A stretch of DNA of 64,000 nt from Myxococcota bacterium (lineage in GTDB: Bacteria; Myxococcota_A; Bradymonadia; UBA4248), in contig JAZRVP010000220.1 in NCBI GenBank assembly GCA_045599245.1, positions 590-64,589 of the forward strand, written 5' to 3'. Positions 4,277-60,835 of the stretch are shown in pieces. Positions within the stretch are counted from its first letter, which is position 1, and the number at the start of each line of letters is the position of its first letter. The notes under the pieces are model-generated. The model worked only from the letters and a program-made list of their open reading frames with translations. It ran no database searches and was not told where the DNA came from. A program made the position numbers and the translations under genes.

Positions 4277-4691
4277 AATTTCCTCCTTAGGTTATTTCGC
4301 AACAGTGCCTGTGCGTTCAACAAGGTAAGTTCTGTTTCGTAAGTTCTGTTTCAAGAATGTCCACCAAATGGCGGACTGTATCCCATTCACACCTACCTAC
4401 AGAATTGCATTCCGCTTGTCGAGCTATTTTTTACAAAAAACCCGAATTTTATTTTTTGCCCGTTTTTTAACGCTTCTAAAATCTACTGGATTTATGCCGT
4501 TTTCCGAGCTCGTTCAAACTTCATCAAATTGTCTCTTTTGAATAAAATTTTTCAAATTCCACATTTAATGAATTTCTTGCAGTTTTCACTTTTGTTTCAT
4601 GTAGAAAAGTTGCACCGTTTACTACGACGTCCGTGTTTTCACGTCAAGTTCTTTCCCACCTCCGCCCACATTCCCCGTTACAACTTGCCCT

Positions 4692-4920
4692 GTTACTGCT
4701 CAGCCAGGGTTAATTCATATATCTATATGAATATGGCGTATTTCGCAATTTTCAGGCAGAAATTGATGAGAGCCGGGGGGGCCGAGAAGACAGGCGTCCG
4801 GTGGACGGCTGGCATCGCAGAGCCCAGTGAGCAAATGAAATGAACGAGTTGGAGAGCCGACAGGCTCGGGAAACGAAGTGCATTTCATATTGCGAACTGA
4901 GGACAGGGGCAAAGCCCCAG
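4692..4920 (-). repeat. Copy A of the mosaic intergenic repeat family (module 2, minus orientation); reverse complement of 25600-25843
   Basis: The reverse complement aligns almost base-for-base with 25600-25843 (..cctcagttcgcaatatgaaatgcac..aattgcgaaata..tatgaattaaccctggctgagcagtaac). The spurious ORFs 4715-4930(-) and 25593-25781(+) encode near-identical peptides because of this repeat. Confidence 0.8.
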
Positions 4921-7837: not shown

Positions 7838-8042
7838 AAATAATCCTGTTTCGGAGTCGGAACAAAAAGACTCGCTGTTTTGCATTATCCAATATCTTGG
7901 TTGTGACTCAAACATGATTTTTTCGTCATGACGGACGAGCGAAATGAGTGGATGCAAAAAAAATGAAAAAATAACTTGCACAAAAATCGAACTGCATATA
8001 TAAGCCGCCGCCGTTGCGATGGAATGTCGCGGCAAACTCCAT

Positions 8043-8115
8043 GGGGCTTTAGCTCAGCTGGGAGAGCGCATGACTGGCAGTCATGAGGTCACCGGTTCGA
8101 TCCCGATAAGCTCCA
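8043..8115 (+). tRNA. tRNA-Ala (anticodon GGC)
   Basis: 73-nt cloverleaf with acceptor GGGGCTT/AAGCTCC carrying the G3:U70 alanine identity pair. Also D-arm GCTCAGCTGGGAGAGC, anticodon stem CATGA/TCATG with loop CTGGCAG (anticodon GGC), T-loop GGTTCGATCC and discriminator A. CCA is not encoded. Confidence 0.85.
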
Positions 8116-8120
8116 TGTTT

Positions 8121-8193
8121 GGGGCTTTAGCTCAGCTGGGAGAGCGCATGACTGGCAGTCATGAGGTCACCGGTTCGATCCCGATAAGCTCCA
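8121..8193 (+). tRNA. tRNA-Ala (anticodon GGC), identical tandem copy
   Basis: Exact duplicate of 8043-8115, separated by a 5-nt spacer. Confidence 0.85.
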
Positions 8194-8198
8194 CTACA

Positions 8199-8230
8199 AA
8201 GCATCCGCAATTGCGGGTGCTTTTTTTTTG
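8199..8230 (+). terminator. Rho-independent terminator after the tRNA-Ala pair
   Basis: Hairpin GCATCCGC-AATT-GCGGGTGC followed by T9. Confidence 0.7.
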
Positions 8231-11586: not shown

Positions 11587-11645
11587 GCGTATTGGCGAAG
11601 CCGATAGCCGGACTGCCCGTGGCGTATTGCGAAGCGATAGCCCGG
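11587..11645. repeat. Two tandem REP-like palindromic units (GCGTATTGGCGAAGCCGATAGCC)
   Basis: Imperfect palindromes TATTGGC-GAA-GCCGATA and TATTGCGAAGCGATAGCC immediately downstream of the rsmF stop. The same unit recurs at 19465-19522 and 34868-34943. Confidence 0.6.
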
Positions 11646-11717: not shown

Positions 11718-14700
11718 TTATTTTGCATCACGACGTCGACGCAGGCCGAGGAGGCCGGCACCGAGCAGAGCCATGAGGGAAGCGAGTGCCGGGAAGTGCG
11801 ATGTTTTCTGAGCCATGACGGATTGGCAGGCGCAGTCATCGTCGGCATAAGCATTTTGGTCCGTAATGAGGTTTCCGTTACCGTCGCCATCGGGATTGGA
11901 ACCGGCGCCGTTTCCATCGCCGTCACCGTTGTTTCCGTTTCCGAAGAAACCGGTTTTACCGCATGATTTGGTGTCATCGCAGGGTTCGAGCGGATCCATG
12001 CCGTGCTGAACTTCGTAGCCGTCGGGCACGCCGCCGTTGTCAGTGTCGGGGTTATTCGGGTCGGTTTCGCCGTCGTCGATGCGTCCGTTGTTGTTTTTGT
12101 CCTCGCCGGGCATACAGCGTTTTTCGACGTTGTTGTTGCCGTCGCAAAGGCCGTCGCCGTCGGTGTCAGGATTGAGCGGATTGGTTGGATTTTCGCCGAG
12201 GACTTCGGTTCCATCGGTGAGGCCGTCGCCATCGGTATCGGCTTTATTGGGGTTGGTTTCACCGGAATCGAGCTGACCGTTGTTATTTTTGTCTTCGCCG
12301 GAAACGCAGGCACCTTCGACGGAATTGCTGCCGTCGCAGAGGCCGTCTTTGTCGGTGTCAGGATTGAGCGGATTGGTTGGGTTGCTTCCGCGCACTTCGG
12401 TGCCGTCAGAGATACCGTCTTTGTCGGTGTCAGCGATATTTGGATCGGTTTCGCCGTCGTCGACGCGGCCGTTGCTGTTCTTGTCTTCACCGCCGTAGCA
12501 AACGCCTTCAATCGTGGTGGGACCATCGCAGAGGATGTCGCCGTCGGTATCGGGATTGAGGGGATTTGTTGGATTTTCGCCAAGGACTTCAATGCCGTCG
12601 GAGAGGCCGTCGCCATCGGAGTCAGCTTTGTTGGGGTCGGTTTCGCCGTCGTCAATGCGTCCGTTGTCGTTTTTGTCTTCGCCGCCGGTGCAGATGACGT
12701 TCCCCTGGTCACTCAGGACGGTTTTGGAACCATCGCAGAGGCCGTCGTTGTCGGTATCGGGATCGTTCGGGTCGGTCTTGTTTTCGCCGAAGAATTCGGT
12801 GCCGTCGGAAAGGCCGTCACCATCGGTATCGGCTTTGTTGGGGTCGGTGCCGGTGACGTCATTTTCAAAGTTGTTGGGCAGGCCGTCGCCATCGTCATCG
12901 TTGTCGCAGTACTGAATATCCTCATAAGTGATGCAGATGTAGCCCGGGGTGACGGTGCAGGCATTGGTGCATCCGTCGTTGTTGTTCAGGTTGCCATCGT
13001 CGCATTCTTCGTTGTTGCTGACTTTGCCGTCGCCGCAGGAGCCGATGCTCGAGTCGATGGAAACGGGAACAGGGGCTTCGGGATTGGCACTGCCATCGGG
13101 ATCGAAAGATGCTTCGAGTGTGTATTCGACGGGATCCGTACCAACTTTTTCGAGTTCGAAAGTGATGGTAACGGTTTCACCGGGAAGGAGTTTTCCGTCG
13201 CGAACATCATTTTCTTTGTCGAATTCCATTTCCGGACCGCCATCATGAACGTTTTCGCCGTTGATGGTGAGGGTATTTGGAACGTACTGAGCTTTATCGT
13301 CCGGGTAATTGAGGTCGAGGGTAAGGCCGTTGATGATGCTTTCACCGGTATTTGTAACGGTGAGAGTGTATTTGATTTTTCCGCCTTCGACGGGTTCCTG
13401 GCTGATGGTGGGTTCGATGAAGTCGTAAGTCCACTGACGTCTGAGGTTTGTGAGGCTGACGAAACCGCCGCCCATGTTCATGCCGCCGGTGCAGCTGGAG
13501 TATTCGTAGCTGATTTCGGCATAGACGACGAAGACACCGTTATTGTTCTTGTTGATACCGTTAACCGGGACCATGAGGTCGAGCGTGTATTTTTTGGAAG
13601 AAGTATAGGGGATGCTGTCGAGAGAGACCGAACAAGCCTTGAGAGAAGAGCTGTATGGGGCGCAGGAAACGGAGGGATCGATGACCTGAATTTCGGGCGT
13701 GAGATAGAATGTTGCGACGGTATTGTTGGCATCAGCGGTACCGTAAGCGTTGGAGAGATTGAGTGTTGCGGTAAAGGTTTGTCCCGGGACGGGCAGCCCC
13801 TTATTGAGCGTGATGCTGCTGCCCTCGAAGTTGGGGGCATTGACGTCGATCTGGAAAGCGACGAGAGTTGGAACGAGAGAGTCTTTTTTGGTGTTGACGC
13901 GGACGATGGCGGAGGACTGTTTGTTTCGAATGTTTCCTGATTTGAGAGGAAGCGTGGTGATATCCCAACCCTGACGGGCGCCGTCTGTGAGTGTGACGGT
14001 GCTTTCGGAAACTTTATGGGTTGAGGGGTCCTGTCGAAGGATATGGTTTTTGTTGCCGAACAAGCCGCGAGTATCGAGCGTGCCGTCAGATTTGTTGATC
14101 TGGGAGGCGAAGAAGTTGTTGACGGCATTGTTTGGGCCGTAAAGAGCCTGGAAAGTGGAGGTTGAAGACTGAGCGATCTGGAGGGAGTCGCCGATGTAAG
14201 CGGTGGTAGAAGTGGCGTCGCCTTCCATTGCGGAGACGAAAATTTTGCCGTTGATGGCACCGGAATCCGGGGCACAGAAGCCGCTGATATTGTAATCGAC
14301 GATTTTATCTTCTGCGACAAAGCGGTCGCCGATGAACATGGTGATATTACGTGTTGGGAGGACGTCGCCGATGGATTCGGGGATGGCGTAAACGACGGCG
14401 AGTGTCCATCCGCCGGCGTAAGTATTAGCGAGGTCCTGAACGGCTGGAATGCCGGTAACGGAATATGTGCCGCCGCCGTTTTTGTCGACGAAATCGGTGA
14501 CATCTGCGTGATTCAGATAGTAATAGGCGTTCCAGTTTGTGCCGTCATTTGCGCCGATGTAATCAATTTTTTTGCTTTTTTGAGGGGCAATTTGTTTTGA
14601 AGAAGCGGCACCGACGGAAGTGAAGGTAACGGGTGTATTGATATTGGAAGAGACATTTTCATTGCTTCCGGCATAATTGGCGGCCCATAAGAGTTCGGCG

Positions 14701-15358: not shown

Positions 15359-17389
15359 TTATTTGCAGACAGCCTGGTATGTGGAGGCATTGTAAGTACA
15401 GGATGAGGAACAGACGGCAGAACCTTCTTCGTCATTTTGTGTGCATCCGAGCATATAGGTTGTGCCTTCGAAATCGTAGCAAATGGACAGTGCCACAGAC
15501 TGGATACCAACGAGTTCGCCGGATTTGTTTAACTTGCATCCGAGGTAGTAGTAAATGCCGTCATCACACGGGTCATCGAATGCAGGAACCTGTTCACCGT
15601 CTTTTGTGCAGAGGCTTTTGACGGTAGCATTGGTGTAAACGCAGTCCTGGGTGCCGTCGTTCAGCGTATCGCAAGCCATGCCGTTTTGGGCACTGCATGC
15701 ATAGGTGTCAACTTTATTGTCGTTGCCGCAATAATAGAGCGTTGAGCTGGTGCAAACATCCTTGAAGGAGGCGTCACAGGGATCGCCTGTCTTTGGTGTC
15801 GTGGGCTGTGTGGTGCCTGAGCTCTTGCAGACGCCGTTTTCGCAGGAAGTTCCCGATGTGCAGGGGGTCTGGGTTTGCCATTTGCCGCTCACGCATTTCT
15901 GGGGAACGCCGTATCCATTGCACTGAAGTGCGCCGTTTGTGCATTCGGATGGATTGGTTGAGCTTCCTGCGCAGGCAGTACCGGCGGCATTGCAGCCGTT
16001 GGGACATTCGTCGTAATCATCTGTCATCTGACTGAACAGGATGTTCCCGGCTTTTGTGCATTCGTAATAGAAGGTGTAGTAGTTGCCTTCGTATTCTTCA
16101 CATACGGTTGTGACGGCACCTTCTCTTGAGCAGGAATCGGCGCAGTATGAGTCGGCTCCATTTTCTGCGATGCAGAGAGCCATACCGTTGGATTTGCAGT
16201 AGGATTTGTTCTCGGCGCTGGAGCATTCGGAATATTCCACGGTGTCGGTGCAGCCTTCGGTTGGCGAGCAGTACGCATCGCACATCTCATAGCTGTTGTT
16301 GTCAACGAAGTAGCCGTAAGAACCGTCCTTGGCGGCAGAGCAAACGATCGGATATGCGACCATCATCATGCCGTAATAATCGTAGCAGAAATATGAACCG
16401 GTCTGACCATTTTGGTTTGCAGTGCAGGTGTTGACGCAGTCGGCGATGCCGCTTGCGCTGACTTTGCAGGATGTGCCATCCGTGCAGGCATAATCAGCGA
16501 CCGTATTATCAGAGCAGTAATATGCCGTGTTGTTGGCACAGGATTCGGAATAAGTTTTGGAATTGCAGGACGAACCGACGACCGGTTTGTCGGGATTGTC
16601 AGGTTTGTCGGGATTGTCGGGATTGTCAGGTTTGTCGGGATTGTCAGGAGTGTTGACGCATGCACCGTTTTGGCAGGTACCTGAACAGGTTTCGAGGTCA
16701 ACCCATGTGCTTCCGGCACAGAACTGAACTTTATTGCCGACGCACTGTTTTGAGCCTGCTGTGCAGACTGGTGAGTTGCATTGGCCGTTTACGCAGCCGT
16801 AATCGCAGGTATTGCCGTTGACCCAGGCGTTGTTAATACAGGTCTGAACGATAGGACCGTTGCACTGTGTTTGACCATTGGTGCAGAGTGTGGGGTCTTC
16901 TGTGCGAAGTTTGCACATGTTGTTTTCACAACCCCAGGGGCAAACAACGGGCTGCTGAATGCCGCCGACACAGGCCAGAAGGGTTGAGGCATCCTGGCAC
17001 AGGCTGACGGTGCATGTTGATTGAGGCTGCTGAGGCTGCTGAGGCTGCTGAGGCTGCTGCTGATAAGCCGACGGATTGCACTGGTCATTGGCACAGCCAA
17101 ATGGACAGGTAATGGGTTGGGCATTACCACCTGAACAGAACAGAAGCGTCTGGGAGTCCTGACATCTGTTGGCTGAACATGTGTTCGCCGTAATACACGC
17201 ATCACCGGAGCAACCATTCGGACACGTAATTTCCGATGCCTGCCCGTTCGTGCATGCCATCAATGTCGATGCATCTTTGCAGTAACTCGCTGAACATGGT
17301 GTCACCACCGGATCGTCTTTGCTTTCCGCACAACCGACTACCATACAAACAGCCGCAAGAATGCTCGCTTTTACCCACAAATTCTTCAT
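15359..17389 (-). CDS. Cys-rich repeat lipoprotein (paralogue family with 40973-, 44317-, 47710-genes)
   Basis: Lipoprotein signal MKNLWVKASILAAVCMVVGC. Tandem ~36-aa modules C-x3-C-x-D-x2-TLL-x-C-x(8-10)-C-x2-GC-x3-C (CKDASTLMACTNGQASEITCPNGCSGDAC). PQQ-rich and PDNPDK-rich linkers. Confidence 0.8.
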   Translation of the reverse strand: MKNLWVKASILAAVCMVVGCAESKDDPVVTPCSASYCKDASTLMACTNGQASEITCPNGCSGDACITANTCSANRCQDSQTLLFCSGGNAQPITCPFGCANDQCNPSAYQQQPQQPQQPQQPQSTCTVSLCQDASTLLACVGGIQQPVVCPWGCENNMCKLRTEDPTLCTNGQTQCNGPIVQTCINNAWVNGNTCDYGCVNGQCNSPVCTAGSKQCVGNKVQFCAGSTWVDLETCSGTCQNGACVNTPDNPDKPDNPDNPDKPDNPDKPVVGSSCNSKTYSESCANNTAYYCSDNTVADYACTDGTSCKVSASGIADCVNTCTANQNGQTGSYFCYDYYGMMMVAYPIVCSAAKDGSYGYFVDNNSYEMCDAYCSPTEGCTDTVEYSECSSAENKSYCKSNGMALCIAENGADSYCADSCSREGAVTTVCEEYEGNYYTFYYECTKAGNILFSQMTDDYDECPNGCNAAGTACAGSSTNPSECTNGALQCNGYGVPQKCVSGKWQTQTPCTSGTSCENGVCKSSGTTQPTTPKTGDPCDASFKDVCTSSTLYYCGNDNKVDTYACSAQNGMACDTLNDGTQDCVYTNATVKSLCTKDGEQVPAFDDPCDDGIYYYLGCKLNKSGELVGIQSVALSICYDFEGTTYMLGCTQNDEEGSAVCSSSCTYNASTYQAVCK

Positions 17390-19071: not shown

Positions 19072-19173
19072 ACATGGACAAACGCGCTGTCCGAGGAGGC
19101 GCATTTACATAAGAATGTTAAAAGAGTCAAGAAAAGAATTAAGCGGATGGCAAAAAGTGTTACAGCTCAGGCA

Positions 19174-19414
19174 GGGTTACTACTCACCGGGGTTCTGCCC
19201 CGAACCCCGCTGGGGCTTTGCCCCAGACTCCACCAAAGGACTGAGTCCTTTGGAATCCTCAATATTTTTAGGGGGAATAAGCATTTGGGGCTGCCTAACC
19301 ATTATTACTCCGCCGGGGCCCTACCCGGCTCTCTGCAATTTCTGCCTTATAGTTGCGAAATGCTCTGCTCATATTTCAGAAGATTTGTGAATTAACGCAG
19401 GGTGAGTAGTAACC
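19174..19414 (+). repeat. Copy B of the mosaic intergenic repeat family with terminal inverted repeats
   Basis: The left end GGTTACTACTCACC (19176-19188) and right end GGTGAGTAGTAACC (19401-19414) are perfect reverse complements. The interior holds GGGGCTTTGCCCCAG, the perfect palindrome CAAAGGACTGAGTCCTTTG, ..AGTTGCGAAATG.. and GATTTGTGAATTAAC. Track ORFs 18997-19395 and 19115-19390 lie inside it and are spurious. Confidence 0.8.
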
Positions 19415-19464
19415 AAAAAGAGGTTACTATTCTGTCGGGGACTCGTGCCAGAGGGGGTCATGCG

Positions 19465-19522
19465 GCGTATCGGCAAAGCCGATAGCAGCATGAGGCCGAG
19501 CGTATCGGCAAAGCCGATAGCC
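19465..19522. repeat. Two REP-like palindromic units GCGTATCGGCAAAGCCGATAGC
   Basis: Two near-identical 22-nt palindromes (TATCGGC-AAA-GCCGATA) at 19465-19486 and 19500-19522, at the 3' end of the convergent 19537 gene. Confidence 0.7.
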
Positions 19523-23547: not shown

Positions 23548-25230
23548 TCAGAGCAGAGGAACGGGCTGGAGGTGCATGTCCTTGACACTGGGGTTGTTGA
23601 GGGAACCGCGAAGGGCGTCGAGAGTCAGCATGAAGATGCCGAAAGTGATATCGCCGTCGGGAGAGAGGCGGACGCTGGAGTTTGTGCTGGAACGGAGTTT
23701 GGAGAGTGCCGGCGAGATGTTCTGAAGGCGGACTTTATTAGAGATGATGTCGTCGCGGAGTTCGAGAACGGGTTCGCCATCCGGAGTGAGGATTAGGGGT
23801 TCTTCGCCGATGATTCTGCGCATGGTCATTTCGATGCGATTAATTTTGAGGTCGATAGTGACGAGATTGCATTCCGGGAAAGTGACCATTCCGTGATCCG
23901 GCCAGGCGCAAGGCATGACGTTGATCGTTGTGATGCCGTTATGGGTGACGCCTGCGATTTTGACGGGTCTTGAAGAGGTGCCGAAAGAGTACATGGTACG
24001 ATAAACGGCGGACATCGGGATGGTTTCATCGAAGAGGAAATAGATGGGTTTTCCCTGATTTTTTTCGTCGTTAAGAGCGGCTTTTTGCAGTTTTTCGATG
24101 AAAGCTGCGCCGGCGTTGATTTCGGCGAAGGATGCGATTTTCTTTTCGTCGTAGAAGACGCCGTCGGCTTTTGTGACGGCGACGATGGAACCGTCATGGA
24201 CGTTATCGCCGTCCAGAGGCATGAAGTTAGAGGAGAGGGCTTTGGAAGCGGCGACGATGTCGTCGAAAGTACGGACTTTTTCCGGAGTGTCCTCTGTGAT
24301 GATGTCACCATCTTCTGTGAACTGTGTTTCGGTTTTTTCGGGTTTATTGATGATATGAGCGGCGATGGGGGCTGCGATGATTGTGACGAGGAGGACCGAA
24401 CCGAGGATAATGAGATATCGGACGGGGATGGATTTAAAGAACTCGGTAACGGGATTGACTTTCTCGTGATAGAGGAGATGGATTTGTTTGATGTCGATTT
24501 CGCGAGTGATGCTTTCGTTATTTTCTGGAGCCATTGGATGGCCGATGACGACGGGATTTTGAGGGGCTCCCGGGCGTTTTGGAGCGGGAGAGGCGGGGGG
24601 CTGTTTTTGAGGAGCGCCGCCCCATGCGTTCCAGTCGTCGTCGGCTTGAGACTGAGTGTTTCGAGGGATTTGGGGAGGTCTTGAACCGGGTCGTTTCGGG
24701 ACGCCTGGTACGACGGATTGTTCGATGATGCCGGCACTTTCGTCATCCCAGGCCTGTCCGATGGCGATTGTTTTTTCACCGCTTTTTTCGTGATGAATGA
24801 CGGGTTCGTCCATTTCGAGAGGCTGGAGGAGGGCTTCAGTTTCCTTTGGTTTATCGGCGAGCTGGCTCCAGTCCTGGTTGGTTCCCCAACCGCCGGGCTG
24901 CTGTCCCCACTGGACGTCGTTTGGAGCTTGTCCCCACTGCTGGTTTTGAGCGGGCTGGTTCCACTGTTGGGCGTTCATGGCGGACTGATTCCACTGCGTT
25001 GGCGCAGGCTGCTGTCCCCACTGGGCGTCGTTTGGCTGCTGTCCCCACTGGGCATCGTTTGGCTGCTGTCCCCACTGGGCGTCAGGCTGTTGTCCCCATG
25101 CCTGAGGCGACTGATTTTGAGCGGGCACGAGTGGAATTTGGCACTGTTCGCAAACTCCGCCGCCGCTTTGGGCATAAATCTGGTCGTCCACAAAATATGT
25201 ACTTTGACACCGGCTGCACGTCAGAAACAT
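23548..25230 (-). CDS. Zinc-ribbon membrane protein with QW-rich tandem repeats
   Basis: N-terminal CxxC...CxxC zinc ribbon (CSRCQSTYFVDD...CEQCQ). Five QWGQQPNDA repeats. A single TM helix (YLIILGSVLLVTIIAAPIAAHII). C-terminal ~270-aa extracytoplasmic domain. Confidence 0.65.
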   Translation of the reverse strand: MFLTCSRCQSTYFVDDQIYAQSGGGVCEQCQIPLVPAQNQSPQAWGQQPDAQWGQQPNDAQWGQQPNDAQWGQQPAPTQWNQSAMNAQQWNQPAQNQQWGQAPNDVQWGQQPGGWGTNQDWSQLADKPKETEALLQPLEMDEPVIHHEKSGEKTIAIGQAWDDESAGIIEQSVVPGVPKRPGSRPPQIPRNTQSQADDDWNAWGGAPQKQPPASPAPKRPGAPQNPVVIGHPMAPENNESITREIDIKQIHLLYHEKVNPVTEFFKSIPVRYLIILGSVLLVTIIAAPIAAHIINKPEKTETQFTEDGDIITEDTPEKVRTFDDIVAASKALSSNFMPLDGDNVHDGSIVAVTKADGVFYDEKKIASFAEINAGAAFIEKLQKAALNDEKNQGKPIYFLFDETIPMSAVYRTMYSFGTSSRPVKIAGVTHNGITTINVMPCAWPDHGMVTFPECNLVTIDLKINRIEMTMRRIIGEEPLILTPDGEPVLELRDDIISNKVRLQNISPALSKLRSSTNSSVRLSPDGDITFGIFMLTLDALRGSLNNPSVKDMHLQPVPLL

Positions 25231-25432: not shown

Positions 25433-25481
25433 CCGGAATAATGTGGAGAGTGTGTGTCAAGGATGGAGGAGGGGGTGAAAA

Positions 25482-25843
25482 GTTACTGTTCACCCGGGGC
25501 TCTGCCCCGAACCCCGCTGGGGCTTTGCCCCAGACCCCACCAAAGGACTGAGTCCTTTGTAATCCTCAATATTTTTAGATAGTATAAGCCTTTTGGGCTG
25601 CCTATCCCTTGTTCCTCGCCGGGGCCCCTCCTCAGTTCGCAATATGAAATGCACTTTGTTTCCCGAGCCTGTCGGCTCTCCAACTCGTTCATTTCATTTG
25701 CTCACTGGGCTCTGCTATGCCAGCCGTCCACCGGACGCCTGCCTTCTCGGCCCCCCCCCGCTCTCGTCAATTTCTGCCTAAAAATTGCGAAATACTCTGC
25801 CATATTCAGTAGATATGTGAATTACCGTGGGTGAGTAGTAACG
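25482..25843 (+). repeat. Copy C (longest, composite) of the mosaic intergenic repeat family with terminal inverted repeats
   Basis: Left end GTTACTGTTCACCC, right end GGGTGAGTAGTAACGG. Module 1 (25482-25600) matches copy B (GGGGCTTTGCCCCAG, CAAAGGACTGAGTCCTTTG). Module 2 (25600-25843) is the reverse complement of copy A. Confidence 0.85.
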
Positions 25844-25995
25844 GTGAAAACGACAAAGTGGTATGAATATTGGCATAAAGCCGTGAAATGTGATAAGGAT
25901 GAAAAATTGAGTGCAAGTCACTCAATCGAAAAAGCAAGAGAGACACCTCTTTCCCAAATAGACCCCGGACTATCAGGAAGGTTAAGGAGATTGGC

Positions 25996-31904: not shown

Positions 31905-31970
31905 CTTTGCAGGGTTGAGTGTAAGGTTGAGTAGATTTGTGAATTTCCTCAGGCTGAGCTGTAACGAGGA
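31905..31970 (+). repeat. Partial copy H of the mosaic repeat (polar end only)
   Basis: GATTTGTGAATTTCCTCAGGCTGAGCTGTAACG is close to the right end of copy E (GATTTGTGAATTACCCCTGCTGAGCTGTAACGG). It ends 12 nt before the start of the PP2C gene. Confidence 0.55.
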
Positions 31971-31981
31971 AGGAGTGTGAG

Positions 31982-32797
31982 ATGCGAAAGCTAATTGGAA
32001 TGATATTAGGCTTGAGTGTATTGATGCCGGGATTTTGTTATGGAGAAACGGTATCGTCCTGGCGCACGGATCGAGGGGTTGTGAGGGATCACAACGAAGA
32101 CAGTGTAAAGGTATTTGGAGAGCATGAAGTATATGTTGTAGCGGACGGTATGGGAGGACATGCGGCGGGGGAGGTTGCGAGTGCGATAGCAGTAGAAACG
32201 GTAGAGGATTATGTGAAGTTTCCGGTCTGGGAAAAGGTGAAAAGGGTGTGGCCGCAGGCGGGTTTGATATTTATGGGGGCGTCATTTTTCGAGGCGAATC
32301 GGCGGATTTTAGAGGATGCGTCGTTGAATCCGGCAAGGCACGGGATGGGAACGACGATGGTATTGCTGGTGATGAGGAAAGGGTATGTGGATATCATCAA
32401 TGTTGGGGATTCGAGGGCGTATGTTCTGCACGACAAGAAGTTGATACGCGTGTCAGTGGATCAGTCGTTATTGACGGAATATATCAAGGCGGGTGTTATC
32501 AAGACGCAGGCGGAAGTGGATGCGTTTCCGTACAAGAATGTGATAACGCAGGCGTTGGGGACGCAGCCGCAGATAGTACCGGATGTGTATACGCGAGAGA
32601 AGGAAGCAGGGGATGTGTATTTATTGAGCAGTGACGGGTTATTTGATGAATTGAGGGATGAGGAGATAGAGGGGATTATTTTGAAACATGGGGAAGACTA
32701 TGAAGGAGCGAGTGAGGAGCTGGTAGAAAAGGCGAAATTGAGAGGAGGGCATGACAATATCACGGTAGTTCTTGTTAAAATGGGTTCAAGTATTTGA
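31982..32797 (+). CDS. PP2C-family Ser/Thr protein phosphatase
   Basis: PP2C motifs: DRGVVRDHNEDS, VVADGMGGHAAGEVAS, GTTMV, NVGDSRAYV, LLSSDGLFD, and a C-terminal GGHDNITVV. Confidence 0.85.
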   Translation: MRKLIGMILGLSVLMPGFCYGETVSSWRTDRGVVRDHNEDSVKVFGEHEVYVVADGMGGHAAGEVASAIAVETVEDYVKFPVWEKVKRVWPQAGLIFMGASFFEANRRILEDASLNPARHGMGTTMVLLVMRKGYVDIINVGDSRAYVLHDKKLIRVSVDQSLLTEYIKAGVIKTQAEVDAFPYKNVITQALGTQPQIVPDVYTREKEAGDVYLLSSDGLFDELRDEEIEGIILKHGEDYEGASEELVEKAKLRGGHDNITVVLVKMGSSI

Positions 32798-32881
32798 CCA
32801 GTTTTGAGTAGCCTGTTATAACGGCGAATTCTGAATAGGGGATAAACCTCTGTCGTAAGTTTGAAAGGAGCGCAAAGAACC

Positions 32882-33145
32882 GTGAAAATTCGCATGTTTT
32901 TTGTGACAGCATTAATATTAAGTACGAGCGTGAGTATTTCTGTTTATGGGGAAGAGAGCGCGGGTTCAGTAGAAGAGAAGCTGTACAATTTTGACGACAT
33001 GCTGATAGACGGAGCGTTTCGTGATCCTCAGGGGATGTTTGAACGAGCGCGAACGGAGGCAGAATTTGAAAGTGTATTGAAACTGGAGCGAAGTTTTATT
33101 CGCCGAATAGAAGACAATACACAAGAGTCATCAATGCGGCCGTAG
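32882..33145 (+). CDS. Small secreted hypothetical protein
   Basis: GTG start 32882 lies ~9 nt downstream of SD AAAGGAGCG. Signal peptide MKIRMFFVTALILSTSVSISVYG. No homology recognised. Confidence 0.4.
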   Translation: MKIRMFFVTALILSTSVSISVYGEESAGSVEEKLYNFDDMLIDGAFRDPQGMFERARTEAEFESVLKLERSFIRRIEDNTQESSMRP

Positions 33146-33179
33146 CGAGAAGCGTCGCGTCGGAAAAGGGAGTGGATAT

Positions 33180-34817
33180 ATGAAGATCATATGCAGTGGC
33201 TGTGGAGCAAAACATTGGCTTTCGGATATGCAACTGTCCGATGGAGGCTGCAATGTAGTATGTCCACACTGTCAGACGACGAATTTTGCGGATGCCTCGA
33301 TGGTGGATCCGGCCTCATTGGAACCGCGGTGGTATTATGCGGTGAATGAAGAGTCGGTAGGACCGCTTTCGACGCGAGATCTGGAATTTGCATTTCAGAA
33401 TGGCCAGCTGACGCTGGATTCGTATGTATGGTGTGATGGTTTATCAGACTGGATGGCGTTAGGAGCTGTACCGGAGTTTGACTATCTGGTATCGCCGGTT
33501 CAGGGGACGCCAGCGGGCCTGGATGAAGCGACGCGAGTTGCGGGCACGGGAGGACGAGGATTTGCGTCGTATCCTGGGCCGGGTTCGTTTGGACGAGGCG
33601 GGGATGAGACGTCAGCACTGGACATGAGCGGGAATGGATTTAGTCCGTTTGACAATGCGTCGTCCGGGATTGTTGGCATGGATGGTCAGGAAGCGAAAGA
33701 TGACGAGCCCATGTTCAACATGGGAATGTCGCAGCCTGCGTCGGCGGCGAACAATATGGTAGGTGGAGCGCGCAGTGAGAATTCGGTTTTGTTTTCGCTG
33801 AGCAGTCTTCAGGCCGTGAGTGCGGCGAGTGCGAGTCCGTCGGTACCGACGACGGCGGGAGGAGATGCGGGATTTGTGGATGTGAAGGCACTTGCCTCTG
33901 CATCGCCGGCGCCGCGCCGTCGCAACGAAGTGGTTGACAGCTTTGGCGGGAGTGCCGTTCCGATGGCGACCGTTCTTCCGTTGGGGAACAAGAAAGACAA
34001 CACGATGCTGGTCGCCATTCTGGTTGGCATTGGTGTTCTTGTTGTCGTTATGGGTGTGGTATTGGCGGTTGTTTTGACGAGGGATACGTCAGCGCCGGCT
34101 GCACAGCAGGCAGCGAACGTTGATACGGACAAAGCGCAGGCTGCAGCGAATGATTTAGGTGTTGCGCCGGCAGCGGTAGCGGACAACACGCAGATCGTGG
34201 ATAAGAATAAGCAGGCCGAAGAAGAAGCCGCGAAGAAGAAAGCGGAAGAAGAAGAAGCTGCGAAGAAGGCCGAGGAAGAGAAGCAGGCCGAAGAAGAAGC
34301 CGCGAAGAAGAAAGCGGAAGAAGAAGAAGCCGCGAAGAAGGCCGAAGAAGAAGAAGCTGCGAAGAAGGCCGAGGAAGAGAAGAAAGCCGCAGCCGACACG
34401 AAGAAAGCTGACACGAAGAAAGCTGACACGAAGACTGAGACGAAGACTGAGACGAAGAAAGCCGCAGCCGACACGAAGAAAGCCGACACGAAGAAAGCCG
34501 ACACGAAGAAGGCCGATGCAAAACCGGCGGCGGCAGCTGGCGGCGGTGCAAGCCTGAGCAAAGCCGAAGTTCAGGGTGTCATTCGTGGTATTGGAGCTCA
34601 GGTCAGAACCTGCAGCCGTACGTCGGCAACGAAGGGTACGATGAAAGTGTCGTTCAACATCAAGGGGGATGGCCGAGTGAGCAATGCTCGTGTCGTTTCG
34701 CCGGAATTTGCGAATACGCCGACGGCATCGTGTGTATTGAAAGTTGTCAACGGAATGAAATTCCGTGCGACAGGCGGAGCCGATGTTCCCATCACGTATC
34801 CGTTTGCAATCCAATAA
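33180..34817 (+). CDS. Zinc-ribbon / GYF-like domain membrane protein with K/E-rich coiled-coil repeats and a Cys-pair C-terminal beta-domain (AgmX/GltJ-like architecture)
   Basis: N-terminal CxxC..CxxC zinc ribbon (CSGCGAKHW...CPHCQ). GYF-like segment RWYYAVNEESVGPLSTRDLEFAFQNGQLTLDSYVWCDGLSDWMALGAVPEF. TM helix LVAILVGIGVLVVVMGVVLAVVL. (AEEEAAKKK)n and (DTKKA)n tandem repeats. A C-terminal ~95-aa domain with two conserved Cys. The architecture resembles myxobacterial AgmX/GltJ. This is a family-level inference only. Confidence 0.7.
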   Translation: MKIICSGCGAKHWLSDMQLSDGGCNVVCPHCQTTNFADASMVDPASLEPRWYYAVNEESVGPLSTRDLEFAFQNGQLTLDSYVWCDGLSDWMALGAVPEFDYLVSPVQGTPAGLDEATRVAGTGGRGFASYPGPGSFGRGGDETSALDMSGNGFSPFDNASSGIVGMDGQEAKDDEPMFNMGMSQPASAANNMVGGARSENSVLFSLSSLQAVSAASASPSVPTTAGGDAGFVDVKALASASPAPRRRNEVVDSFGGSAVPMATVLPLGNKKDNTMLVAILVGIGVLVVVMGVVLAVVLTRDTSAPAAQQAANVDTDKAQAAANDLGVAPAAVADNTQIVDKNKQAEEEAAKKKAEEEEAAKKAEEEKQAEEEAAKKKAEEEEAAKKAEEEEAAKKAEEEKKAAADTKKADTKKADTKTETKTETKKAAADTKKADTKKADTKKADAKPAAAAGGGASLSKAEVQGVIRGIGAQVRTCSRTSATKGTMKVSFNIKGDGRVSNARVVSPEFANTPTASCVLKVVNGMKFRATGGADVPITYPFAIQ

Positions 34818-35079: not shown

Positions 35080-37446
35080 ATGGATACGTTTGAACAGGAA
35101 AAATACATATATCCGAACGGTACGATCATCGCGGATCGGTTTGAAATTTTGTCGTTTCTGGCGTCAGGGGGTATGGCGGATGTTTATATCGCGAAGCAGC
35201 TGACGATGGATCGCGAGGTGGCGTTGAAGGTATTGCTTCCGGCATTTTCGTGTAATCAGGATGTCAAGATGAGATTTCATCGCGAGGTGGAGGTAGTCTC
35301 GAAGCTGCAGCACCCGAATACGATACAATTTTTTGATCGTGGCGAGACGGCGGAGGAGCCGCCGCGTTTGTTTATCGCGATGGAGCTGTTAAGGGGAGAG
35401 GAGCTTGGGGAGCGGATCAAACGAGGGGTGATGAGTGCGCAGGAGGTTTTGCCGATTGTGAGGCAGGTTGCGGAGAGCCTTGCGGATGCGCATGCGCACG
35501 GGATAATTCATCGGGATTTGAAGCCGGACAACATCTATTTGACGACATATAACGGCGTGAAGGTGTTGGATTTCGGGATAGCGAAGGTATTGAATGGAGA
35601 AGAGACCCGGGAGGAGGGATCGGAACGAGGGCGTCGCCTGACGAAGGCGGGCACGGCGCCCGGGACGCCGGAGTATATGAGTCCGGAGCAGGCTCGCGGA
35701 AAAGATGTGGACGGCCGGAGCGATTTGTATTCGCTTGGTTGCGTGATGTACGAGATGCTTTGCGGGCGACCGCCGTTTGAGGAGTCGACGTATCTGGCGA
35801 CGATATTGATGCAGGTTCAGGCAGCGCCGCCGGCACTTCCCGCGACCGTTCCGGATTTTGTGAGCGAGTATGTGATCAAGAAGTTATTGGCGAAAGACCC
35901 GAGCCAGCGTCCGTCGAGTGCGCAGGAGTTTATCCGGGATGTGGATGAACTGATGAAGAGGCTGAAGCCGGGGAAGACGGCGGAGGAGATGCAGGCGGAA
36001 ATAGAGCAGCTAAGGAACAAGCTGGCGCAGGCGAATCTGGAGCTGATGCGTTCTGGGGATATGTCTGTATTGACGGACAATGAAGTGACGCGGATAAGGC
36101 CGGTTCCGAGTCGGGCGCCTGTTGGGAGCACGTGTGTAAGCGTGAACACGGGTGATGGCAGTGTAAATGTCGAGAATCCTGTGTGTCGAGGCGGGGGAGT
36201 GAATGCAGGAGGCGTGTGGCAGGGTGGCCAGACGGGGCCTGTACAGGTTCGTCAGCCGATGCGGGTGATGCCCGGCAGTCTGGACAATAGTGATTTGGAG
36301 CGCGTTCCTGTACGAGGACGAGGCGTGAAGCCTTCGATGCCTGGGGCGTCAGCAGGCAGTGAATATGAAGGGGAACGCATTCCGGTTCGGAGCCGCAATG
36401 GGATGTCGCTGGCTGGGATGCAGGCGATGTCGAATGGGTATGAGTCAGATGTTGTTTCCGGTCGAAGCCGCAGCATGATGTCGCCGGTTCCGTCGCAGGC
36501 GATACCGAATGGATATGATCCGGATGTTCCGGTCCGGAGCCGAAGTGTGATGCCATCGATGCCTGGAATGCAGGCGATATCGAATGGATATGAGCCGGAT
36601 GTTCCGGTTCGAGGCCGCAGTTCGATGCCATCAATGCCCGTGATGCAGCCGATGCCGAATGGATATGATGAGGAGCGGGTTCCGGGTCGGAGTCGGGGAA
36701 TGATGCCGTCAGTTCCGGTGCAGCCGATGCCGAATGGATATGAAGAGGAGCGAGTTCCTGTGCGGAGTCGGGGGATGATGCCGTCAGTTCCGGTGCAGCC
36801 GATGCCGAATGGATATGAGAAGGAGCGTATTTCGGGCCGGAGTCGCAGCTCGATGCCTGGGATGCCCGGGATGCCGTCGAAGGGCGGGATGGAATATGGA
36901 AGTGGTCAGGATGTGCGCGAGCGTGTATTGCCGACGATGGGATATTTTGAGTCGGAGGAGGAGGCGGTTCCTGCGCCGCGACATGGCCAGCGGTCGGCAA
37001 GTACGCGAGAGCGGTATGGTGCGGCGGCGGATCAGATCGAAGAGAACGGAGGCGTCCATGGGGGGCGTCCGAGGAATGTGTTGACGGGAACGCAGATGAG
37101 GAAGGGAGGCGGTCGTACGTTAGGCGTTGGGGGGCAGACGACGGCGACGCGAGAGTATATTTTTATGATGTTTTCGCAGTTAGTGACGAGTAAATTAGGG
37201 CCGGAGAAACTGACGGAGGCATTGGAGTTATCGAAGAGTGTATGGAATGCGGCCGTGATTGGGAAAGAAGCGACGGATGTGTTGTACCAGTCAGCGGGAG
37301 TGCAGACGAATTTGAGAAAGTTGATAGAGGCGATGGTAAACTGGAAGGAGAATTATTTCAGGGATGAGAAGTGGTCGATAGAGAGTGTGAAGAGTCGAGT
37401 GGATTCGTCAGGCCGAATGGAACTGACGTTGGAGACGAGTGAATAG
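35080..37446 (+). CDS. Ser/Thr protein kinase with C-terminal tandem-repeat region
   Basis: Hanks-type kinase motifs: GGMADVY (Gly loop), VALK, HRDLKPDNIYL, DFGIAKV, GTPEYMSPE. Start ATG 35080. Residues ~440-620 hold ~8 degenerate 25-28-aa repeats (MPNGYEEERVPVRSRGMMPSVPVQP), followed by a ~110-aa C-terminal domain. No TM segment. Confidence 0.85.
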   Translation: MDTFEQEKYIYPNGTIIADRFEILSFLASGGMADVYIAKQLTMDREVALKVLLPAFSCNQDVKMRFHREVEVVSKLQHPNTIQFFDRGETAEEPPRLFIAMELLRGEELGERIKRGVMSAQEVLPIVRQVAESLADAHAHGIIHRDLKPDNIYLTTYNGVKVLDFGIAKVLNGEETREEGSERGRRLTKAGTAPGTPEYMSPEQARGKDVDGRSDLYSLGCVMYEMLCGRPPFEESTYLATILMQVQAAPPALPATVPDFVSEYVIKKLLAKDPSQRPSSAQEFIRDVDELMKRLKPGKTAEEMQAEIEQLRNKLAQANLELMRSGDMSVLTDNEVTRIRPVPSRAPVGSTCVSVNTGDGSVNVENPVCRGGGVNAGGVWQGGQTGPVQVRQPMRVMPGSLDNSDLERVPVRGRGVKPSMPGASAGSEYEGERIPVRSRNGMSLAGMQAMSNGYESDVVSGRSRSMMSPVPSQAIPNGYDPDVPVRSRSVMPSMPGMQAISNGYEPDVPVRGRSSMPSMPVMQPMPNGYDEERVPGRSRGMMPSVPVQPMPNGYEEERVPVRSRGMMPSVPVQPMPNGYEKERISGRSRSSMPGMPGMPSKGGMEYGSGQDVRERVLPTMGYFESEEEAVPAPRHGQRSASTRERYGAAADQIEENGGVHGGRPRNVLTGTQMRKGGGRTLGVGGQTTATREYIFMMFSQLVTSKLGPEKLTEALELSKSVWNAAVIGKEATDVLYQSAGVQTNLRKLIEAMVNWKENYFRDEKWSIESVKSRVDSSGRMELTLETSE

Positions 37447-37448: not shown

Positions 37449-37585
37449 AGTTACTACATAGTTGGGGCTTTGCTCCGAAACTCGCCGGGGTCTCTCTCCC
37501 GGCTCTCATCAATCTCTGCCTAAAAATTGCGAAATACGCCCTATTCAATAGAGATATATGAATTAACCCTGGCTGAGCAGTAAAG
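37449..37585 (+). repeat. Copy D of the mosaic intergenic repeat (short form)
   Basis: GAGTTACTACATAG..GGGGCTTTGCTCC..CTCATCAATCTCTGCCTAAAAATTGCGAAATACGCCCTATTCAATAGAGATATATGAATTAACCCTGGCTGAGCAGTAAAG. It ends ~100 bp before the 37686 start. Confidence 0.75.
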
Positions 37586-37685: not shown

Positions 37686-38555
37686 ATGCCATCGAGTTTG
37701 AACGACTCATTTAATAATCTTTCAAGATCGAGCAGTGATGTAGCGAGAATCCGTCGAGGGGCGAAAGGGCGTCCGGGCGCGGAGAGTGCGAAGAATCTGT
37801 TGGGCAGTATTCTGGATGATACGACGGAAGCGGCGGAGACAGAGCGTGTAGTCCGCGAAGAGAACGCGAAGCGTGCGGAAGAGGAAGCGCAGCGCCAGAA
37901 AGAGATGGCGGAAGAAGATGCGCGACTTCAGGCGGAACGGGAAATTATTGCGGAGAAGCAGGCGCAGGAAGATTTGAAGCTTCATCAGGCGGAGATGCAG
38001 GCGCAGCTGCAGCGTGAAAAGGATATCGAAGCCGGGATAATCAATCTTGAGGAAGAGGCTCGTCAGAAGCGAGAAGAAGAAGAGCGTCAGAGAGCGAAAG
38101 AAGAGGCGATCAAGCGCAAGACGGAAGCGAAGCTGCAGGCGATTGAGTTCAAGAAGAACCAGGAAACGGAACTTGAAGCGTTGCGTCAGGAGCAGCTAGC
38201 GAAAGAGGCGCAGCCGAAGAAATCGAATATGCCGAAGATTATTGCGGCGGCGGCAGCAGTTGTCATAGCGGGCGTTGTGGGATTAGTTTTTGCGTTGAAT
38301 CAGGAAGTGATCGATCCGTATGCGATGGGTGACGAAAAGAGTTATGAGACGCAAAGCATATCGTTTGTGAATGAAGACAACGGGATGATGAGTATTGCGA
38401 GGAATCTGGTTGTTCAGGCGCCGCCACCCAAGCCTGTGGCGAAGAAGAGCGGAGGCGGGAAGAAGAAAGGCGGCGGTGCAGCGCCGGCGGCGCCGATGCC
38501 GAAGCCGAGTCTGACCGGTGGAAAAGGTGGACTTTTTGGCAAAGGTAAGCTGTAA
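37686..38555 (+). CDS. Coiled-coil (E/K/R/Q-rich) single-pass membrane protein, Gly/Lys-rich C-terminus
   Basis: ATG 37686 follows the strong SD GAGGAGGA. ~170 aa of charged heptad-like sequence, then TM IIAAAAAVVIAGVVGLVFAL, then a C-terminal KKSGGGKKKGGGAAPAAP tail. A hairpin terminator lies at 38585-38615. Confidence 0.6.
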   Translation: MPSSLNDSFNNLSRSSSDVARIRRGAKGRPGAESAKNLLGSILDDTTEAAETERVVREENAKRAEEEAQRQKEMAEEDARLQAEREIIAEKQAQEDLKLHQAEMQAQLQREKDIEAGIINLEEEARQKREEEERQRAKEEAIKRKTEAKLQAIEFKKNQETELEALRQEQLAKEAQPKKSNMPKIIAAAAAVVIAGVVGLVFALNQEVIDPYAMGDEKSYETQSISFVNEDNGMMSIARNLVVQAPPPKPVAKKSGGGKKKGGGAAPAAPMPKPSLTGGKGGLFGKGKL

Positions 38556-43900: not shown

Positions 43901-44287
43901 AAAGATGAATTTCCGTCGGATATCAGTGGAACGTGCAGTATAGCCAAGTGTTCGACTGTTGATAAGAATGCGTATTTTTGTGATGAAAAGACGCACACCT
44001 ATTATTTTGATGCGTCTCATGGCGCATGCAGTGCGGACAAGCCGTGTAAAGTTTGTTCAAATGGCTATGCGGGCTGTGGCATCACGTGTAACGGAGAATT
44101 ACCGTCGGATATCAGTGGTACATGCAGTGTCGCCAAATGTTCAAATGTCGACCATAATGCGTATTTTTGTGATACCGAATTGCATACCTATTATTTTGAC
44201 AAAGCCCATGGCACATGCAGTGCGGACAAGCCGTGTAAGGTTTGTTCAAATGGCTATGCGGGATGTGGTATAACTTGTAAAGAATAA
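40973..44287 (+). CDS. Large Cys-rich repeat lipoprotein (paralogue family)
   Basis: Lipoprotein signal MRNGKVAIICVISSLFAMQC. The N-terminal ~130 aa are homologous to the N-terminus of the 47710 gene. Multiple ~36-aa modules (CNIGQRECSEAGKLRLCTAGSWETIDCESGCSDGKC). ~45-aa modules of type C..G...C.G...YVCG.NG.YYLKETC......C. Three near-identical 63-aa C-terminal repeats. Acidic Gly-rich linker DDGGEDDGGDEKGDGGDSG. Confidence 0.8.
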   Translation: MRNGKVAIICVISSLFAMQCTLEYHDLGIDCEGVQSIQLSSGGVCLPDVCTGCSKDDEQSCSSYKTEGAFAQNRCPHDFMCTTLANGNGANFCMHKTKERACGVDLPYLCGDSKKCASSCSKCEDNEECYLIINIGNDKKSGAKEGAEQECNIGQRECSEAGKLRLCTAGSWETIDCESGCSDGKCLDVSESECEDGKRRCEGDKETQACQDGEWKTTGTCQRGCLDGECTEESDPGKSGDEKDDGGEDDGGDEKGDGGDSGEKGETGCGEGDVGCNGETVVEICQSKEWKKLSECGENQICSEGECVLREEVEDGKCENKLRRCQNDVPQECVEETWVSETKCMYGCEDGFCNEEWIGKACEESSYQQTCINGGIHALVCENGVIRKHRCADGNCSVNPSNPLEMICQEGCTADSKGECAPACNADGTKGYYWNHTKSPASFDCPNADCRVVDGFVSCGQESCSAKSKNRCIPACSADKKTGYYMNGSNNIKAKSCPNGDCVSYKGNIYCGMPEACTRETYEPECTEDGTGTYCSADEIVKTWGCGGGEKCQLRFDGSCDLSSRCIDGKYNVSEYPKGFIDCVKNDESKVPETCNPEQDKAMCENGHVYVCGQNGRYYLKETCSANQRCEEGQCIYESVPESCKYGESEAICAGESKNELYVCGNDNKYYKKVVCPDSQPCRVNKGWGQCIDESIPKACVKGDPAKCVGLDLYVCSKDGYYYLKETCSETNPCFESNGYGGCEGAVLPNGALSDCVYEGEGASPALCLGEDNLDLYVCGQSNRYYKKERCPEGTVCRVSNGFGQCIPPEVPESCKYGNSNVICAGNAIYECGRNNWYLKHEVCDEGETCTIHSTGKSASCLKAGVPGECTNSVHAICQGQDVYVCGKNGWYYLNKTCAEGATCSISASGFGDCRLFPSDVSGTCSIAKCSTVDKNAYFCDTESHTYYFDIAHGTCSEDKPCKVCGNGYAGCGITCKDEFPSDISGTCSIAKCSTVDKNAYFCDEKTHTYYFDASHGACSADKPCKVCSNGYAGCGITCNGELPSDISGTCSVAKCSNVDHNAYFCDTELHTYYFDKAHGTCSADKPCKVCSNGYAGCGITCKE
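43721..44284 (+). repeat. Three tandem 189-bp near-identical repeats inside the 40973 gene
   Basis: Units at 43721-43909, 43910-44098 and 44099-44284. Each encodes FPSDISGTCSIAKCSTVDKNAYFCDTESHTYYFDIAHGTCSEDKPCKVCGNGYAGCGITCKDE, with >90% nt identity. Confidence 0.85.
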
Positions 44288-51769: not shown

Positions 51770-51910
51770 GTTTAGAGCTTTCTCAGGGAAGGTCTGAATA
51801 AAACGATATTTTTAGGCAGAAATAAAAGAGAGCCGGGGATGAGGCCCCGGCTGGGAATCATGGTTAGGCAGCCCAAAAGGCTTATATCACCTTAGGAATC
51901 CTCACCGGAG
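51770..51910 (-). repeat. Partial copy F of the mosaic repeat (minus orientation)
   Basis: The reverse complement reads GATTCCTAAGGTGATATAAGCCTTTTGGGCTGCCTAACCATGATTCCCAGCCGGGGCCTCATCCCCGGCTCTCTTTTATTTCTGCCTAAAAATATCGTTTTATTCAGACCTTCCC. This is homologous to the middle of copy B and to the tail of copy G. Confidence 0.6.
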
Positions 51911-55036: not shown

Positions 55037-55100
55037 AAGGATGCTCCTGGTTGTGTGAAAAACAAAGGGGGATGAAGGTACAGGGATGCGCGATTATGCA

Positions 55101-55229: not shown

Positions 55230-55254
55230 GGTCAAACTCCTGTTTACGATGTAG

Positions 55255-55340
55255 GTATGTGAATTAACCCTGGCTGAATAGTAACCCTCATTTGTTACCT
55301 TAATATTGTGTTTTATTCAGACCTTCCCAGGGGGAGTAGA
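55255..55340 (+). repeat. Partial copy G of the mosaic repeat
   Basis: GTATGTGAATTAACCCTGGCTGAATAGTAACC followed by GTTTTATTCAGACCTTCCCAG (shared with copy F). It lies ~170 bp upstream of ftsK. Confidence 0.6.
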
Positions 55341-60795: not shown

Positions 60796-60835
60796 TGATT
60801 TTCGCCATTCACAGGATGGCGAAAATCCTCGCCCC

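Follow-up and report, generated by a model that had tools for sequence, protein, structure and literature searches.

The 64,000-nucleotide stretch of contig JAZRVP010000220.1 analysed here (hereafter referred to as the window) carries at positions 19175–19414 a full-length member, c19, of a family of intergenic repeats. We consider it probable that the members of this family are copies, together with decayed and recombined fragments, of a lineage-specific, non-coding and non-autonomous mobile element of ~135–360 bp, which resembles the miniature transposable elements with inverted repeats known as MITEs and also recombines. As is characteristic of MITEs, the repeats are small, non-coding, present in multiple copies and dispersed, inverted repeats stand at the limits of their mutual homology, and individual copies are present in one genome and absent from another. 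A preliminary description of the window had proposed that the repeats form a mosaic, dispersed and MITE-like family whose ends are inverted repeats. The coincidence of the homology limits with inverted termini, the perfect 8-bp target-site duplication of one copy, the exchange of modules between copies and the difference in copies between two related genomes support this notion.

Self-blastn searches with three copies and profile hidden Markov models (HMMs) of four modules identified eight intergenic loci of 42–361 bp each, and no ninth locus in the window. These eight are the loci that had been listed before, found again at or near the same coordinates. The family was also taken not to be an inert chance repeat, and the motif counts in the window, far above expectation, agree with this: CAAAGGACTGAGTCCTTTG occurs three times exactly (0.01 expected), GGGGCTTTGCCCCAG three times with two or fewer mismatches (0.08 expected), and the right-end pattern AGATWTRTGAATTN{8,9}TGAGYWGTAA six times (0 expected). 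Non-coding spacers, which account for 10.3% of the first 62 kb, contain all eight loci, a distribution with a chance probability of ~1e-8. Element copies, at a density of one per 8 kb, occupy most of the largest spacers of the window. The open reading frames (ORFs) overlapping the elements are short (25–91 aa), with the addition of one 132-aa frame that runs antisense through a tRNA-Gln gene, and none found a match among predicted proteins.

In c19, which lies on the plus strand, the order of parts is left inverted terminus, the GC-rich hairpins hpA1, hpA2 and hpB, a middle module, the hairpin hpC, a right module and the right terminus. The left terminus, GTTACTACTCACC, is followed by two copies of GGGGCTYTGCCCC with a C-rich linker and then by hpB, CCAAAGGAC-TGA-GTCCTTTGG, after which come an AT-rich stretch and the middle module (TATAAGC…GGGCTGCCTAACC). 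Next come the hairpin GCCGGG…CCCGGC, then TCAATTTCTGCCTAAAAATTGCGAAATAC…CATATTCAGTAGATATGTGAATTAAC, and finally the right terminus CCTGGCTGAGCAGTAAC. The homology between c19 and another full-length copy, c25, extends from GTTAC to GTAAC. The same right boundary (…GTAAC) was found in seven copies, whose mutual similarity stops exactly after GTAAC, and the left boundary (GTTAC…) in three, at 19.2, 25.5 and 37.5 kb. The terminal inverted repeats are 13–20 nt long and imperfect (GTTACTnCTCAnCC … GGnTGAGnAGTAAC). The two ends match in inverted orientation at 14 of 14 positions in c19 (GGTTACTACTCACC / GGTGAGTAGTAACC), at 12 of 14 in c25 and more weakly in c37, so that the inverted termini attributed earlier to the full copies are borne out; by eye, ~17 of the first 20 positions of the left end of c19 agree with the right-end consensus in inverted form. 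The ‘perfect palindrome’ of the preliminary description does have 9-nt arms that pair throughout, but with one unpaired central base. Five of the eight loci have one terminus or none. The copies that are not intact are left-truncated at varying points or internally deleted.

The two halves of the element differ in structure: on the left, perfect GC-rich hairpins with 3-nt loops, of the repetitive extragenic palindromic (REP) type, are stacked one after another, and the right half is a conserved, unstructured subterminal segment of 40–80 nt. The predicted RNA fold of c19 has an energy of −104 kcal/mol with z = −7.5 on the plus strand, and the opposite strand gives z = −5.4. A fold of this strength, closed by the 14-bp terminal stem, might be thought to indicate that the whole element is a structured, multi-copy functional RNA, and the compensatory changes that keep the hairpins in a cross-phylum unit (see below) would fit such a family. 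However, strong folding is expected for inverted termini plus hairpins, and its similar strength on both strands points to DNA palindromes rather than to a strand-specific RNA. Moreover, most copies are truncated or rearranged at differing points, no promoter/terminator pair is evident, the elements match no family in Rfam (in the window, only the tRNAs reach a gathering score), and the right half is unstructured. An RNA gene family is thus extremely unlikely.

The other copies show which of these parts were kept. The longest, c25 (25482–25842, plus strand), is full-length, with the termini GTTACTGTTCACCC / GGGTGAGTAGTAAC, and contains a nested 129-nt module at 25629–25757; its identity to c19 is 88.4% in the left part and 81.8% in the right part. 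A short copy, c37 (37450–37584, plus strand; blastn and HMM), has the left end GTTACTACATAG, a single hpA, hpC, the right module and the right terminus …GCAGTAAA, and starts 4 nt past the stop codon of a Ser/Thr kinase gene. Without a left terminus, c4 (4692–4918, minus strand; blastn) is composed of hpA2 (4904–4918), the 129-nt module (4775–4903) and the right module with its terminus (4692–4774). The 5′-truncated c60 (60835–61040, plus strand; blastn and HMM) extends from hpB through the right terminus, with ~19 additional bases within the right module. In c51 (51786–51892, minus strand; HMM), the middle module and hpC are followed by another 3′ module (…TTTTATTCAGACCTTCCC), which replaces the right end. 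The composite c55 (55247–55341, plus strand), delimited by alignment to the Logan contig L001 of a related genome, joins the last ~40 nt of the right end (55247–55286) to the same TTTTATTCAGACCTTCCC module. Finally, c31 (31924–31965, plus strand; HMM E = 1e-9) is a solo right end of 42 nt, located between polA and a PP2C gene and ending 16 nt 5′ of the PP2C start codon. All loci that had been listed as full or partial copies are therefore real, but at 31.9 and 55.2 kb no more than the final ~40 nt of the right end is present, and the locus at 51.8 kb lacks this end altogether.

Two extra solo end fragments flank c19. The first, an inverted right end (19159–19179, minus strand; GCCTGAGCTGTAAC), adjoins and overlaps the left terminus of c19, and 19158–19179 is 91% identical to 4691–4712. 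The second, the left-end-like GGTTACTATTCTGTCGGGGACTCGTGCC (19422–19449, plus strand), lies 7 nt 3′ of c19; its assignment is weak, with three mismatches over 19423–19436. This clustering of end fragments resembles that of the pneumococcal BOX/RUP/SPRITE repeats (PMC10969869).

The 129-nt module provides evidence for exchange between copies. Its sequences in c4 and c25 are 97.7% identical, whereas the right parts adjoining it in the same two copies are only 83.9% identical (Fisher p = 4e-4), and the right part of c4 is closer to that of c37 (91.8% identity). This disparity shows a recent insertion of the module into, or its conversion between, two different backbones. The earlier view of the longest copy as a composite is thus correct: it is an element of the 19.2-kb type plus a module that recurs at 4775–4903. 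The module has an internal inverted repeat of its own (GCAATATGAAATG … CATTTCATTTGC) around a GAGCC-TGTC-GGCTC hairpin, can be traced also at 5397–5437 of L001, and is flanked by GGCCCC repeats in c25. Possibly, it is a nested element in its own right, with the loop of hpC as its target.

As evidence for movement, c25 is abutted at both termini by a perfect 8-bp direct repeat, GGTGAAAA (25474–25481 on the left and 25843–25850 on the right, read from the sequence). The chance of such a repeat is ~1e-3 when three copies and ±2 nt per boundary are allowed for. Before the insertion, the c25 site would have read …GGGGGTGAAAACGACAAAG…, with a single GGTGAAAA. Presence/absence differences were found in relatives. 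L001 encodes an FtsK homologue that is 90% identical to that of the window, and its DNA is 86.6% identical over 4.6 kb. It lacks a clean 95-nt block 5′ of ftsK that holds the right-end fragment of c55, both flanks being conserved. Conversely, L001 carries a copy of the c4 type 3′ of a HAD gene, where the window has unrelated sequence, and the contig terminates within this copy. In a syntenic relative with ~70% protein identity, represented by L017, the spacer corresponding to that of c25 measures 334 nt and contains no module, as compared with 765 nt including c25 in the window. The loci of the other relatives that we examined contained no module either.

Searches outside the window were consistent with a narrow distribution. 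In collections that do not contain the window's own genome, the right-end pattern was absent from the 185,579 species-representative genomes scanned and from the JGI metagenomes. A pattern for the 129-nt module gave none in metagenomes, and neither half of the element matched plasmids in blastn. As protein queries, a six-frame chimera of c25 and c19 had no match, and a 69-aa ORF across c25 had just three chance matches, in repetitive proteins, among 1.84 billion representative proteins. Given these results and the presence/absence differences, the family appears to be young and restricted to this lineage, and to be in flux among close relatives.

These observations suggest a scheme in which a transposase encoded elsewhere in the genome would bind the termini and insert the element into intergenic DNA with an 8-bp target duplication. 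After insertion, left parts would be lost from copies, further copies would insert beside or into each other, and internal modules would be swapped by recombination or gene conversion, giving rise to the mosaic. Several findings weigh against a MITE of this kind. The target-site duplication is present in only one of the three two-ended copies: the check for it proposed earlier was positive at c25 but not at c19 (flanks caggcagg / caaaaaga, 4 of 8 matches) or c37 (2 of 8 matches). The c55 insertion has neither inverted termini nor a duplication, and none of the presence/absence sites compared (c55 against L001, the copy in L001, and L017) is a precise empty site differing by the element plus one duplication. 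Copies of the c4 type without a left terminus stand at two unrelated loci in two genomes, and their left flanks share no significant similarity (an equal or better score was reached by 1173 of 2000 shuffles). Classical two-ended transposition thus cannot have acted alone, and recombination between copies or one-ended events must contribute. Furthermore, no transposase or autonomous partner, and no integrase, was found among the genes of the window, and the sample is small, with eight loci plus one in a relative.

The preliminary description had gone on to interpret the elements as promoter- or leader-bearing cassettes, that is, the right module would supply a sigma70-type promoter and/or a 5′ leader to the downstream gene, and selection for this function would explain the retention of the right end. 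Several features are in line with this idea. In the seven copies with a right end, two 40-nt remnants among them, this is the part that is retained; TTGCGA and TAGAT(T/A) resemble −35 and −10 hexamers; and promoters within MITEs are well documented (Correia, MITEAba12, QMITE1; PMC10969869). The proposed block TTGCGA-N16/17-TAGAxAT, however, holds for the copies at 4.7 and 37.5 kb only. TTGCGA, which is missing from three loci, is separated from the homologous TAGAT hexamer by 17, 18, 19, 21 or 38 nt. Where the spacing is usable, the hexamer reads TAGATA or GAGATA and lacks the T expected in sixth position of a −10 element, and copies with TAGATT or AAGATT have the wrong spacing or no −35 element. 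A consensus scan of 19.0–26.1 kb revealed no promoter-like or terminator-like site inside c19 or c25, the two copies covered; in both, a T-run lies 12 nt past hpB. Canonical-looking promoters can be read elsewhere in this host, with TTGACT 5′ of tRNA-Gln and TTGACG 5′ of ftsK. The latter belongs to a promoter-like site of ftsK itself, TTGACG-N16-TAACAT, which lies 3′ of the element and is conserved in L001, the relative without c55.

The orientation of the copies was also examined. By coordinates, it is true that the right end faces a gene start at seven of the eight loci, with 12–415 nt between the element and the next start codon; the right end of c19 faces the 3′ end of a convergent gene. 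Two of the loci, however, are flanked by divergent genes, so that a copy would face a start in either orientation, and are thus uninformative. At the loci between co-directional genes, five of six copies follow the gene direction (one-sided p = 0.11), a bias that cannot be separated from an alignment with the upstream gene or with the leading strand. The genes downstream of the copies are functionally unrelated (PP2C, a GAF-histidine kinase, FtsK, a DsbA-like protein and others). As for a structured 5′-untranslated-region family, which had been offered as a variant, the covariation check on the right half gave no compensatory change in 18 pairs, with a consensus folding energy of only −4.3 kcal/mol, and the variable distance to the start codon likewise speaks against it. 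Permissive Rfam searches with c25 and with foreign hairpin arrays yielded noise, the best being Clostridiales-2 with 21–25 bits against a threshold of 58.6. Taken together, the spacing, scan, structure and orientation results make a promoter or leader cassette very unlikely. The elements might have regulatory effects, for example through transcription reading out of them, cleavage of their terminal stem by RNase III or 3′ hairpins that stabilise the upstream transcript, but the sequence gives no indication of this.

The left half of the element raises another possibility, namely that the family is related to REP sequences and bacterial interspersed mosaic elements (BIMEs). Mosaics of palindromes would then be spread and kept by a hairpin-recognising single-strand transposase, such as a REP-associated tyrosine transposase (RAYT) or an IS200-like enzyme, or by recombination; the units would act at the 3′ side of upstream transcripts, as hairpins that protect or terminate these, and the inverted termini would be incidental. 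The stacked perfect palindromes with 3-nt loops are as expected from this model. Several copies begin 4–40 nt past the stop codon of the upstream gene, and copies without a left terminus are dispersed nevertheless. Another REP-like family, with the sequence TATCGGC-NNN-GCCGATA, is located at the 3′ ends of genes in the same window. In addition, the left half includes a two-hairpin unit that recurs in distant bacteria.

This two-hairpin unit is present in the window at 19187–19258, 25494–25565 and 60841–60865. An exact 19-mer scanned against species-representative genomes matched ten loci, and at seven of them the similarity spans 45–73 nt at 76–88% identity, extending into the flanking hairpin and linkers. 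The hosts of these seven are Methylobacterium aerolatum (three loci), a Rhodospirillales metagenome-assembled genome (MAG) and two Ruminococcus MAGs (three loci); one Methylobacterium unit does not itself have the seeded 19-mer. The foreign units lie at L008 3004–3113, L010 145–280, L011 417–560, L015 2315–2431 and 6815–6923, L009 2968–3176, L012 4888–5097 and L013 4609–4818. In all hosts the layout is hpA, ACYCC, CCAAAGGACTSAGTCCTTTGG, RAWCC, and the units are intergenic and arranged in arrays, which by eye are inverted doublets in Alphaproteobacteria and form a 205-nt element of six hairpins in Ruminococcus. Across 13 units, 97.8% of the cells are paired, as compared with 30–62% in slid controls, and 7 of 14 pairs have double compensatory changes; none of 500 shuffles attained such values. 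Loops are flipped among the copies (CTGAG/CTCAG and AAA/TTT). The unit has no Rfam family and is nearly absent from plasmids, and the hpB pattern had no match in viral contigs. We found no description of the palindrome or of the cross-phylum unit in the literature searched.

REP super-families that span phyla are known (PMC3733652), but the GTAG and CGTC tags that define them are absent from the feet of the hairpins described here, which are perfect and flanked by ACYCC and RAWCC linkers. The feature common to seven copies is the non-palindromic right end, not the hairpins, and an 8-bp duplication with inverted termini is unexpected from movement of the IS200/RAYT type. Terminator-like sites are missing from c19 and c25, as described above, and no RAYT gene was seen in the window. 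We therefore regard a REP/BIME-like origin as rather unlikely. It is conceivable, albeit quite doubtful, that the two-hairpin unit is the recognition module of an undescribed hairpin-repeat system that travels horizontally, in which case the elements of the window would be chimeras, a local MITE having captured that module. Independently of this, the fact that the right end is constant whereas the left is truncated to varying extents might be due to a copy-out or one-ended mechanism and not merely to decay. If confirmed, the cross-phylum unit would represent an unusually well conserved non-coding module common to distant bacteria and would offer a handle on the spread of REP-like hairpins.

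The second REP-like family consists of perfect hairpins set within an outer CCGG stem just past gene 3′ ends. They are located at 11590–11606, 19468–19484, 19503–19519 and 59911–59927 (also 59868–59900), and at 5245–5315 of L001. At the orthologous site, L001 has TATTGGCTTTGCCAATA, a double compensatory change that leaves the palindrome perfect.

Several other identities were considered for the elements described above and rejected. Integron attC sites do not apply: with termini of GTTACTA / TAGTAAC the elements depart from GTTRRRY, they are upstream and not downstream of genes, and no integrase is encoded in the window. The GG-N10-GC spacing of sigma54 promoters is absent, and the arms are 17–20 nt apart instead of the 6 nt of a dif/Xer site. 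The IHF consensus and a CRP half-site were rejected by inspection, and a group II intron remnant by the lack of an Rfam match. Inverted termini together with an 8-bp duplication are incompatible with an end of the IS200/IS605 type.

The window represents ordinary chromosomal DNA, with polA, ftsK, rsmB, hydF, a ROK kinase and tRNAs. The named homologues of its proteins come from MAGs labelled ‘Bradymonadales bacterium’ or ‘Proteobacteria bacterium’, and the host belongs to an uncultured, probably gut-associated lineage resembling Bradymonadales. No repeat family has apparently been described for this lineage, and the present one is apparently new.

Some of the gene-content differences from the relatives were found next to element copies. 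Synteny with L001 breaks exactly at c55 (window 55037–55345 against L001 1–725): a VIT-domain gene stands 5′ of ftsK in the window, and a Ser/Thr-kinase-like gene in L001. To the left of the c55 insert, ~19 nt (CATGGTYAWACTCCTGTTT) are common to both. PP2C+GYF (31982–34817) is apparently absent from L017, where polA is directly followed by a distant Ser/Thr-kinase homologue, and a gene for a 289-aa protein (37686–38555) has no match on L017. Both of these window-only stretches are bordered by element copies.

Other features of the window are unrelated to the repeats. The GC skew of the plus strand at 5000–56000 is very strong and persistent (0.1–0.46 per kb, cumulative 11.5), far above typical bacterial values, and independent of gene orientation, as seen for instance in the minus-strand genes at 11.7–25.2 kb. 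Two identical tRNA-Ala(GGC) genes are arranged in tandem at 8042–8116 and 8121–8194, 4 nt apart, and are followed at ~8203–8230 by a canonical terminator consisting of a hairpin and T9. Large genes contain many in-frame tandem repeats, at 12010–12891, 36410–36857, 43721–44287, 44385–45074, 34205–34524, 16584–16655 and 24896–25104, with periods of 192, 75, 189, 129, 15, 9 and 27 nt; they include the Lys/Glu/Ala-rich stretch of the GYF-domain protein and a DUF4215-containing protein of 1107 aa.

At their density of one copy per 8 kb, the elements shape the length of the spacers. They also break metagenome assemblies, as in the case of L001, and mark synteny breakpoints. In annotation, these blocks should be masked as repeats and, without transcript data, should not be called promoters or RNA genes.

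By comparison with known systems, the family would be classed among the intergenic repeats of the MITE/REP type, and its behaviour appears closest to that of the Correia elements and the pneumococcal BOX/RUP/SPRITE mosaics. Like the Correia elements of Neisseria (CREE/NEMIS), the repeats are small (~100–200 bp in Correia), non-coding, intergenic and of high copy number, with terminal inverted repeats that can form a long RNA stem, full and internally deleted size classes, a frequent location just 5′ of genes, and positions that differ between related genomes (PMC10969869). There is no sequence similarity, however, and the termini of Correia measure 26 bp and the duplication is TA, as opposed to 13–20 nt and 8 bp here. 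Promoters and RNase III cleavage have been shown experimentally for Correia, whereas the promoter-like block of the present family fails in spacing. With BOX, RUP and SPRITE the family shares a mosaic of short hairpin-forming modules, clustered and nested insertion, and terminator-like hairpin modules (PMC10969869). It differs in its modules and host and in the right terminus common to nearly all copies; BOX has no inverted termini or duplication.

The REP/BIME/REPIN sequences are likewise short, GC-rich extragenic palindromes, comparable to the left half of the present element, and they occur in several phyla (PMC3733652, PMC3116915); the units in Alphaproteobacteria that are related to the present one form inverted doublets. 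Here, in contrast, the stems are perfect, with 3-nt loops, lack the GTAG/CGTC tag and have no RAYT in the window, and the unit is embedded in a larger element with inverted termini and a duplication. Unlike that of the REP super-families, the cross-phylum similarity amounts to 80–88% and spans ~50 nt of sequence, beyond a shared tag. Finally, the enterobacterial ERIC/IRU and RU-1/2/3 repeats are imperfect palindromes of 100–170 bp in transcribed intergenic regions, with size variants that arise from internal insertions at fixed sites. In these respects they are similar to the present family, but their sequences are unrelated, and ERIC, with TA duplications and one long imperfect palindrome, differs from the stack of hairpins plus unstructured right module that characterises the elements described here.

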